From Oscillospiraceae bacterium (GTDB taxonomy: Bacteria; Bacillota; Clostridia; Oscillospirales; Oscillospiraceae), in contig WRAK01000007.1 of the NCBI GenBank assembly GCA_009780235.1, positions 7,847-71,846 of the forward strand: a DNA stretch of 64,000 nt. The letters are read 5' to 3'. Positions 54,663 to 54,738 of the stretch are shown here, piece after piece (within the stretch, counting starts at the first letter, position 1; the number at the start of each line of letters is the position of its first letter). The position numbers and the translations under genes were made by a program. The notes beneath the pieces are model-generated. The model saw nothing but the letters and a program-made list of their open reading frames with translations, made no database searches and was not told the origin of the DNA.

Positions 54663-54738
54663 TGCGGAGTGGATGCAGCGGTAGCACGTCGGCCTCATAA
54701 GCCGAAGGTCATGGGTTCGAATCCCATCTCCGCAACCA
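54663..54738 (+). tRNA. tRNA with CAU anticodon, initiator(fMet)-like
   Basis: Hand fold: acceptor TGCGGAG/CTCCGCA, anticodon arm TCGGC-CTCATAA-GCCGA, variable loop AGGTC, T arm ATGGG-TTCGAAT-CCCAT, A73 and encoded CCA. The D arm is irregular. Confidence 0.8.

Follow-up and report, generated by a model that had tools for sequence, protein, structure and literature searches.

A predicted initiator-type tRNA-Met in an Oscillospiraceae prophage and its bulged-D-stem relatives in other phages

We analyzed a tRNA gene located in a prophage of an Oscillospiraceae bacterium, on a stretch of 64,000 nucleotides (nt) of contig WRAK01000007.1 that is referred to in its entirety as the window. The source is a gut-type metagenome-assembled genome. 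The first ~27 kb of the window consist of genes of the host, alaS and pyruvate carboxylase (pyc) among them, after which an integrase gene and a cI-like repressor gene open a prophage that extends from these two genes through terminase and portal genes. The tRNA gene lies between a formyltransferase gene and the gene for the small terminase subunit (terS). A previous model-made description of the same DNA, prepared from the letters only and denoted here as the sequence-only reading, had placed the gene in a prophage, and the integrase and cI-like repressor found beside host alaS and pyc support this placement. It had also described a tRNA(CAU) with U1:A72, G2:C71, C3:G70, A73 and an encoded CCA, derived from an initiator tRNA but with each initiator hallmark altered, and possibly tailored to the adjacent phage enzymes. 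Coordinates of all features are given in Table 1.

The gene is the sole tRNA that ARAGORN finds in the 64-kb window, where it is called as tRNA-Met(CAT), and Rfam model RF00005 matches positions 54664-54734 with 53.5 bits (E=1.1e-8; gathering score 29). The fold was not rejected by the tRNA predictor, and the ARAGORN register, together with the letters themselves, agrees with the described anticodon, acceptor pairs and 3' end. The acceptor pairs read from the sequence are U1:A72, G2:C71, C3:G70, G4:C69 and G5:C68. All four stems are fully paired, and A73 and CCA are intact. The Rfam alignment represents the D arm by a mismatch instead of an extra nucleotide and shifts the acceptor register by one nt. 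We kept the ARAGORN register because only this register sets CCA at positions 74-76, whereas that of Rfam would misplace it. Under the same model, E. coli metZ scores 61.4 bits, regular members of the class 64-75 bits, and two further tRNAs whose D arms are irregular (L193, L036) 37-46 bits. Positions 54601-54870 are identical in an independent Logan assembly (L156), the reads of which possibly came from the same sample. The agreement of two assemblies over the tRNA region makes an assembler-specific error unlikely.

Table 1 Features of the prophage and of the predicted tRNA gene. Positions are those of the window. Cells are left empty where no value is available.
Feature	Position	Strand	Details
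Integrase	28096-28884		Opens the prophage
cI-like repressor	30393-31028		Opens the prophage
ParB N-terminal-domain protein	52136-52942	+	First gene of cassette; Pfam ParB_N; PHROG 498/620 at 2e-44; synteny in L004, L006, L007
384-aa protein	52939-54093	+	ABC-type ATPase N-domain, GNAT-like C-terminal half (QGAGVG motif); phrog_11143, 1.3e-148
174-aa mini-formyltransferase	54077-54601	+	PF00551 core, HPSLLPRHRG motif; Pfam 2.3e-20, profile positions 67-169 of 181
Intergenic segment, 262 nt	54602-54863	+	Hairpin, tRNA and 125-nt spacer, between formyltransferase gene and terS
Hairpin, 16 bp	54612-54647	+	GAAG-type tetraloop, then AUUAUUUAUA; terminator-like match, folding
tRNA-Met(CAU), predicted initiator type	54663-54738	+	76 nt, CCA encoded; ARAGORN, Rfam RF00005, metZ identity
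Acceptor stem	54663-54669 / 54728-54734	+	UGCGGAG/CUCCGCA
Bulged D arm	54672-54687	+	G10 54672; extra A 54673; U11-G12-C13 54674-54676; loop AGCGGUA 54677-54683; G22-C23-A24-C25 54684-54687
Anticodon stem-loop	54689-54705	+	UCGGC-CUCAUAA-GCCGA; anticodon CAU 54696-54698; C31 54693 : G39 54701
A73	54735	+	
Encoded CCA	54736-54738	+	
Terminase small subunit (terS)	54864-55769	+	Likely start 54864/54867 after GAGGTGG; Pfam Phage_terminase from residue 1 of 54864 start

In order to assess the class of the tRNA, we used the metZ, metT and ileX sequences of E. coli K-12 as references. The window tRNA is identical to initiator metZ at 63/76 positions, compared to 53/76 for elongator metT and 47/76 for ileX, and all BLAST matches under the E-value limit in the E. 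coli genome fall within the metZWV locus. Among these, matches H71-H73 had been candidates for prophage tRNAs and were rejected, as they are ordinary alleles of that locus. The methionine identity elements, namely CAU in a CUCAUAA loop and A73, are the same as in metZ, and the formylation determinants G2:C71 and C3:G70 are present. The elongator type does not fit, as metT has G1:C72, U4:A69 and A5:U68 where the window tRNA has U1:A72, G4:C69 and G5:C68. Nor does the tRNA-Ile2 type: C4:G69 and C5:G68 are determinants for TilS, and ileX starts with GGCCCCU, with C4 and C5, while the window tRNA has G4 and G5. Judged by its sequence, the tRNA is clearly initiator-derived, and the sequence-only reading was right in this respect. 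It was also literally correct on the three hallmarks. The run of three consecutive G:C pairs (29:41, 30:40, 31:39) is replaced by a GC/GC/cg stem, the initiator-type R11:Y24 pair (A11:U24) by U11:A24 with a bulged A, and at 1:72, where initiators lack a strong Watson-Crick pair (canonically C1xA72), the window tRNA has U1:A72, a weak one. Its further suggestion, that these alterations make a special initiator/elongator hybrid, is not supported. Each of them is the mildest possible change, and E. coli grows with a GC/GC/cg tRNA as its sole initiator (PMC5389676). The deviations are not peculiar to this prophage either, since all three recur in other phage tRNAs. We conclude from these comparisons that the three deviations are neither unique nor disabling.

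Over the anticodon arm and variable loop the window tRNA reads CGTCGGCCTCATAAGCCGAAGGTC and metZ reads CGTCGGGCTCATAACCCGAAGGTC, with mismatches only at positions 31 and 39. The tRNAfMet arm given in the sequence-only reading agrees with metZ, and the sole change is from G31:C39 to C31:G39. G29:C41 and G30:C40 are retained and the third pair is inverted. A tRNAfMet with this inversion ('3rd CG', GC/GC/cg) supports growth of E. coli with the four chromosomal initiator genes deleted, and among the three G:C pairs only the middle one, G30:C40, is essential (Shetty et al., PMC5389676). We found the exact variant arm GTCGGCCTCATAAGCCGAAGGTC in 32 IMG/VR contigs. In 31 of these it falls within a tRNA-Met called by ARAGORN, and in the remaining contig the match runs past the end of the stored stretch. 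Among 185,579 species-representative genomes the variant arm is present in just 18, which are scattered over phyla and include no Oscillospiraceae. Of the 18 matches, three represent fragments rather than tRNAs, and four are part of arrays with 8-16 tRNA genes. As a separate observation, the variant-arm 23-mer lies outside any tRNA in Saccharospirillum and Marinobacter genomes (L157 119-141, L167 3202-3224, L170 761-783), with an intact tRNA-Met gene 40-60 nt away and similar non-tRNA sequence following it (…CTCCCTTCG.CTTTT.CGG…GGGAGC). These three 23-mers could have been left behind by an integrative element that used an initiator tRNA gene as its site, or could mimic a tRNA arm.

The flip raises the question of selection. 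An enteric VapC toxin cuts tRNAfMet between A38 and C39 (PMC4105405), and the flip alters the nucleotide just 3' of the cut bond. Nearby mutations have been proposed to let phage tRNAs evade anticodon nucleases (PMC10264068). The C31:G39 flip, and perhaps the D-stem bulge, might therefore have been selected for resistance to toxins or defence nucleases that cleave tRNAfMet, so that phage initiation would outlast a destroyed host pool. The rarity of the variant arm in cellular genomes would be consistent with this explanation, and so would its repeated origin: 14 of 24 distinct CG-type tRNAs have their nearest counterpart among canonical GC-type viral tRNAs and not among the other CG-type tRNAs, which suggests that the flip arose repeatedly. 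However, in equal samples of 120 viral contigs per pair, the share of pairs other than GC is 79/120 at 29:41, 4/120 at 30:40 and 15/118 at 31:39, and CG at 31:39 is no more frequent than AU, UA or GU. Since 29:41 varies more than 31:39, position 39 is not singled out, and we rejected a special variability at 39 as a signature of escape from VapC. The variation instead agrees with the tolerance map determined experimentally in E. coli and fits simple functional tolerance. In addition, no VapC-like nuclease was identified in this host. We consider nuclease evasion an unlikely explanation of the window tRNA.

The D arm folds with a bulged A in place of A11:U24, as the sequence-only reading had it, with one extra nucleotide at 54673 and a U11:A24 pair. 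The exact D arm has 0 matches in viral contigs and 0 in metagenome contigs. This suggested that the bulge was a private defect, a suggestion overturned by structural parsing of other tRNAs. Our population set consisted of 185 distinct initiator-like tRNAs out of viral and metagenome loci. An extra nucleotide between N10 and N11 is seen in 14 of the 185 (the window tRNA and 13 others) compared to about 5 of 531 non-CAU tRNAs of the same loci (Fisher p=1.3e-5). In the alignment of the 14 sequences pairing of the bulged D helix is 100%, and three of its four pairs have changed in a compensatory way; at 10:25 the pairs are GC in ten sequences, UA in three and AU in one. G30:C40 and A73 are each present in 14/14, and 1:72 is unpaired in 12/14. 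For the present analysis we defined a lineage of bulged-D-stem initiator-like tRNAs by an extra nucleotide between paired 10:25 and 11:24, G30:C40, a weak or mismatched 1:72 and A73, and the window tRNA has all of these. One bulged form (UGG-U-AGC...GCUC) is found in 83 IMG/VR contigs, with 61 distinct sequences of which about 46 have CAU loops. All three deviations together (U1:A72, C31:G39 and the bulge) are found in eight distinct phage tRNAs, the window tRNA included. Both of these counts come from pattern-directed sampling and are not unbiased frequencies. By its predicted structure, the window copy is a variant of a recurrent bulged architecture, and the putative tRNA is a member of a lineage of initiator-like tRNAs that is widespread in phages. 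We found no description of a bulged D stem in phage initiator tRNAs in the literature searched, an absence that is weak evidence. Some bulged phage tRNAs (L303, L315, L372 and others in IMG/VR) have unusual anticodon loops, namely CCCAUAA, with C33 for the near-universal U33, UUCAUAU or CUCAUAU.

These results also bear on whether the gene is functional at all. It could be a captured initiator copy that is decaying and gathering damage, the D-stem insertion and the lost hallmarks being part of that damage. An Rfam score that lies 8-20 bits under those of regular members of the class, a D arm that is unique in the collections searched, and a minimum-free-energy (MFE) fold that differs from the cloverleaf would all be expected to look this way in a non-functional gene. 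Although such features are compatible with decay, the complete pairing of four stems and the intact A73 and CCA are not what it would leave behind, both partners of the 31:39 and of the 11:24 pair have changed in a compensatory manner and not at random, and the bulged architecture is conserved with covariation across many phages, including cultured ones. We regard decay as very unlikely.

At position 1:72, the E. coli U1 mutant, which has the same U1:A72 pair, shows near-normal formylation and is a poor elongator, and U1:A72 is also found in some natural initiator tRNAs (PMC6265465). The 185 initiator-like tRNAs have CxA in 53 cases, UxU in 27, U:A in 26, CxU in 16, AxA in 15, A:U in 14 and G:C in just 3. 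This predicted phage population holds 1:72 open or weak in the fashion of initiators. A paired 1:72 might nevertheless let an unformylated fraction of the window tRNA bind EF-Tu, so that one tRNA would serve both initiation and internal AUG codons, like in mammalian mitochondria. The U11:A24 pair is in favor of such a dual function, as it is of the Y11:R24 type that is usual in elongator tRNAs. A Watson-Crick 1:72 pair turns initiator mutants into Pth substrates, and the mutants G72, U1/U2:A71 and U1/U3:A70 sustain E. coli in both roles (PMC6265465). However, the latter results do not extend to the U1 change alone, which was reported in the same work to leave the tRNA well formylated and poor in elongation. 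G2:C71 and C3:G70 are intact in the window tRNA, and 12 of the 14 bulged tRNAs have an unpaired 1:72, so that the overall character of the lineage is that of initiators. A dual function is, in our estimation, quite unlikely.

On balance, we think it probable, from the sequence and by analogy with E. coli genetics, that the window tRNA is a functional phage-encoded tRNA-Met of initiator type, and we infer each of the functional steps as follows. Upon induction of the prophage, the tRNA would be transcribed along with the plus-strand genes, from its place between the terminator-like hairpin and the packaging genes, and the transcript would be processed to a 76-nt tRNA with its CCA end already encoded. 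Host methionyl-tRNA synthetase (MetRS) would charge it with methionine, given the CAU anticodon and A73. Host Fmt would formylate it, as G2:C71, C3:G70 and A73 are retained and 1:72 is merely a weak U:A pair. The ribosome would then be expected to use it in the P site because the essential G30:C40 and also G29:C41 are retained. The likely outcome is that the host pool of initiator tRNA is supplemented or replaced while phage genes are expressed.

Several points weigh against this interpretation. Among the 14 bulged tRNAs, 13 have A11:U24 and the window copy has U11:A24; the bulged base is mostly U elsewhere and A in the window, and the exact D arm is without a close relative in the viral and metagenome collections. 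The R11:Y24 pair, lost in the window tRNA, is a listed recognition element of Fmt (PMC9976931), and this is the least well covered of the changes. The MFE fold is not the cloverleaf (-26.5 kcal/mol compared to -24.3 kcal/mol for the constrained cloverleaf). We judged MFE folding of the bare sequence to be uninformative because the constrained cloverleaf is only about 2 kcal/mol away. No sigma-70-like promoter was found in 54300-55000. Finally, the host is a member of Oscillospiraceae (Bacillota), and rules derived from the cited E. coli genetics may not carry over to it.

The functional initiator-type reading could be extended from the window tRNA to the lineage. Phages may keep their own lineage of initiator tRNAs, with the bulge between 10:25 and 11:24, an altered 31:39 and a non-canonical 1:72 as its recurrent signature. 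The signature would be an adaptation by which the tRNAs stay usable by host MetRS, Fmt, IF2 and ribosome yet become invisible to host factors that inactivate tRNAfMet, such as nucleases of VapC type or other initiator-targeting nucleases or modifiers. The window tRNA would then be a counter-defence initiator tRNA of a temperate phage. We offer this proposal tentatively and would place it on the unlikely side.

Upstream of the tRNA the sequence-only reading had noted a 15-bp hairpin at 54613-54646. The hairpin exists, although its size has to be corrected to 16 pairs and its ends to those of Table 1. Its folding energy is -30.4 kcal/mol (z=-7.35; 0/200 shuffles as stable). It begins 10 nt past the stop codon of the formyltransferase gene and ends 15 nt ahead of the tRNA. 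The hairpin resembles a terminator, and it could be a site of processing. No second copy of its arms was found above chance in the rest of the window. A terminator downstream of the tRNA at 54740-54790 was considered and rejected, as the folding there is non-significant (z=-1.65). In five related loci (L004, L005, L006, L007, L008) the gap between the formyltransferase gene and terS is 7-36 nt, and ARAGORN finds no tRNA. The hairpin cannot be present in gaps of this length, and since the two genes nearly abut in these relatives, the intergenic segment of the window looks like an insertion in a tight junction. Based on this comparison of sequences, hairpin and tRNA appear to be a small insertion with no functional tie to the neighbouring cassette.

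The cassette itself consists of three genes (52136-54601, plus strand) directly upstream of the terminase genes, and is conserved in relatives L001, L003 and L004-L007. Homologues of the formyltransferase with 56-72% identity are found in the same order of ParB_N, ATPase, formyltransferase, terS and large terminase (terL) genes in the five loci L004-L008. For the 384-aa protein there are at least 7500 homologues; the best 120 share 72-100% identity with it, an unusually high conservation for a phage protein. Its AlphaFold2 (AF2) model has a mean predicted local distance difference test (pLDDT) value of 74 and, as a whole, returns ABC nucleotide-binding domains only in Foldseek; its C-terminal half is putatively GNAT-like, as judged by topology. 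The 174-aa formyltransferase has no Formyl_trans_C, the C-terminal tRNA-binding domain of Fmt, and the start of the N-domain is missing as well according to Pfam. Against NCBIfam fmt (TIGR00460) it scores 57.4 bits, with a cut-off of 201.5. The nearest solved relative is the N-domain of 10-formyl-tetrahydrofolate (THF) dehydrogenase with 94 bits, and Fmt chains in PDB score 34-36 bits. Judged by these profile and sequence scores, the protein is not Fmt-like and resembles the dehydrogenase N-domain. Some phage PF00551 proteins, DpdN being an example, are predicted to act in DNA modification (PMC10516641), and the three-gene cassette may be a DNA-modification or anti-defence module.

The above results are relevant to the proposal of the sequence-only reading that the tRNA is a substrate tailored to the adjacent phage enzymes, i.e., a dedicated substrate of the formyltransferase or of a cassette of formyltransferase and ATPase-acyltransferase. 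The tRNA starts 61 nt downstream of the PF00551 formyltransferase gene, and some homologues are labelled 'methionyl-tRNA formyltransferase' by the Joint Genome Institute (JGI). Proximity and label are outweighed by the eight related loci in which the cassette is kept without the tRNA (L004-L008 and L001-L003), and by an enzyme of 174 aa that lacks the Fmt tRNA-binding domain and the start of the N-domain, lies far under the fmt cut-off, and has its nearest solved relative in a dehydrogenase N-domain; the predicted role of some phage PF00551 proteins in DNA modification also counts against the link. We therefore rejected the link between the tRNA and the adjacent enzymes; as an explanation it is already largely refuted and we give it hardly any credence. 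The two-gene core of ATPase and formyltransferase is also found in Porphyromonas phages, a human-faecal phage contig and Burkholderia phage phiE255 (gp29-gp30), and there is no tRNA near it in the three GenBank records concerned (Porphyromonas phage, human-faecal phage contig, phiE255). In phiE255, a Mu-like phage, the core sits after the tail genes.

Downstream, the public call for terS has 375 aa and runs from GTG 54642 to 55769 (L155 10566-11693), reading across the tRNA gene. Considering the start in Table 1, the deposited call is probably ~74 codons too long and overlaps the predicted tRNA gene. The terS coding region has a 20-nt exact direct repeat, AAACGAGCGTTGTACAACAC, in two copies whose starts are 22 nt apart (55015-55056, plus strand), which could be a packaging (pac) or regulatory site. 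Other repeats of the window are a 24-nt unit repeated exactly head to tail (50713-50760, plus strand), a 22-nt exact unit in two copies 45 nt apart (63316-63382, plus strand), and a perfect inverted repeat of 26 nt, its arms separated by 16 nt, at 26210-26277, ~1.8 kb from the integrase gene on the host side, which probably serves as a terminator in both directions. A 455-aa glycine-rich protein (PF21722; 57540-58907, plus strand), with DNA repeats of GGX type at 58015-58468, is placed between the large terminase and portal genes, an unusual position for a glycine-rich protein.

Taken alone, the window tRNA adds another tRNA-Met to those carried by phages, and sequenced phages already have this kind, under the plain annotation tRNA-Met. 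It is the family that deserves attention. Numerous phage initiator-like tRNAs keep the features found essential in experiments (G30:C40, a weak or open 1:72, G2:C71, C3:G70 and A73) and vary the dispensable ones, and a sizeable subset has a conserved one-nt bulge in the D stem that is recurrent and covarying. If the bulge is functional, be it through escape from host nucleases or modification enzymes or through altered use by initiation factors, initiator tRNA would join the translation components that phages replace during infection, and tRNA engineers would have a natural, tolerated variant of the D stem. The results also remove a tempting inference, as a formyltransferase gene beside an initiator-like tRNA does not imply a phage formylation system.

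In order to place the window tRNA among known systems, we first compare it to E. coli metZ/metW/metV (NC_000913.3 2947387-2947683). In addition to the identity of 63/76 nt, it shares with metZ the D-loop core AGC..GGUAGC, the loop CUCAUAA, the variable loop AGGUC, G2:C71, C3:G70, G29:C41, G30:C40, A73 and the CCA end. It differs by U1:A72 for C1xA72, C31:G39 for G31:C39, U11:A24 plus a bulged A for A11:U24, a shorter D loop, and a T arm AUGGG/CCCAU with G57. The E. coli mutants 'U1' and '3rd CG' of the Varshney laboratory have the same single changes and keep initiator activity (PMC6265465; PMC5389676). In those studies each change was tested by itself, in an E. coli tRNA whose D stem is normal, whereas the window tRNA combines both with a bulge. 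Similar to the phage tRNAs of mycobacteriophage cluster C1 and others for which evasion of anticodon nucleases has been proposed (van den Berg et al. 2023, PMC10264068), the window tRNA is changed beside a known toxin site (A38/C39, enteric VapC). The change is in the stem and not in the loop, however, and position 39 does not stand out in the pattern of variation. Phages are said in the same study to generally avoid encoding tRNA-fMet (PMC10264068). The dual-function tRNAMet of mammalian mitochondria is similar in that a single tRNA with a CAU anticodon and a paired 1:72 might, in principle, perform both roles, and different in that the mitochondrial Fmt recognizes the amino acid instead of the acceptor stem (PMC6265465), while the host of the window presumably has separate initiator and elongator tRNAs.

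A close counterpart from a cultured phage is SmphiM12_t6, a tRNA-Met of Sinorhizobium phage phiM12 (KF381361.1 95631-95707) with 81.8% identity to the window tRNA. It is annotated merely as tRNA-Met in GenBank, and we found no functional study of it in the literature searched. The tRNA-Met genes of phiM7, phiM19 and phiN3 in GenBank match the window tRNA at the same identity. In common with the window tRNA, the phiM12 tRNA has U1:A72 and C31:G39, a single additional D-stem nucleotide after G10 and before position 11, A73, and a CCA end encoded in the gene; it differs in having U29:A41, a bulged U and a retained A11:U24. The two carriers are also distinct, phiM12 being a large lytic phage of an alphaproteobacterium and the window holding a temperate phage of a Bacillota host.

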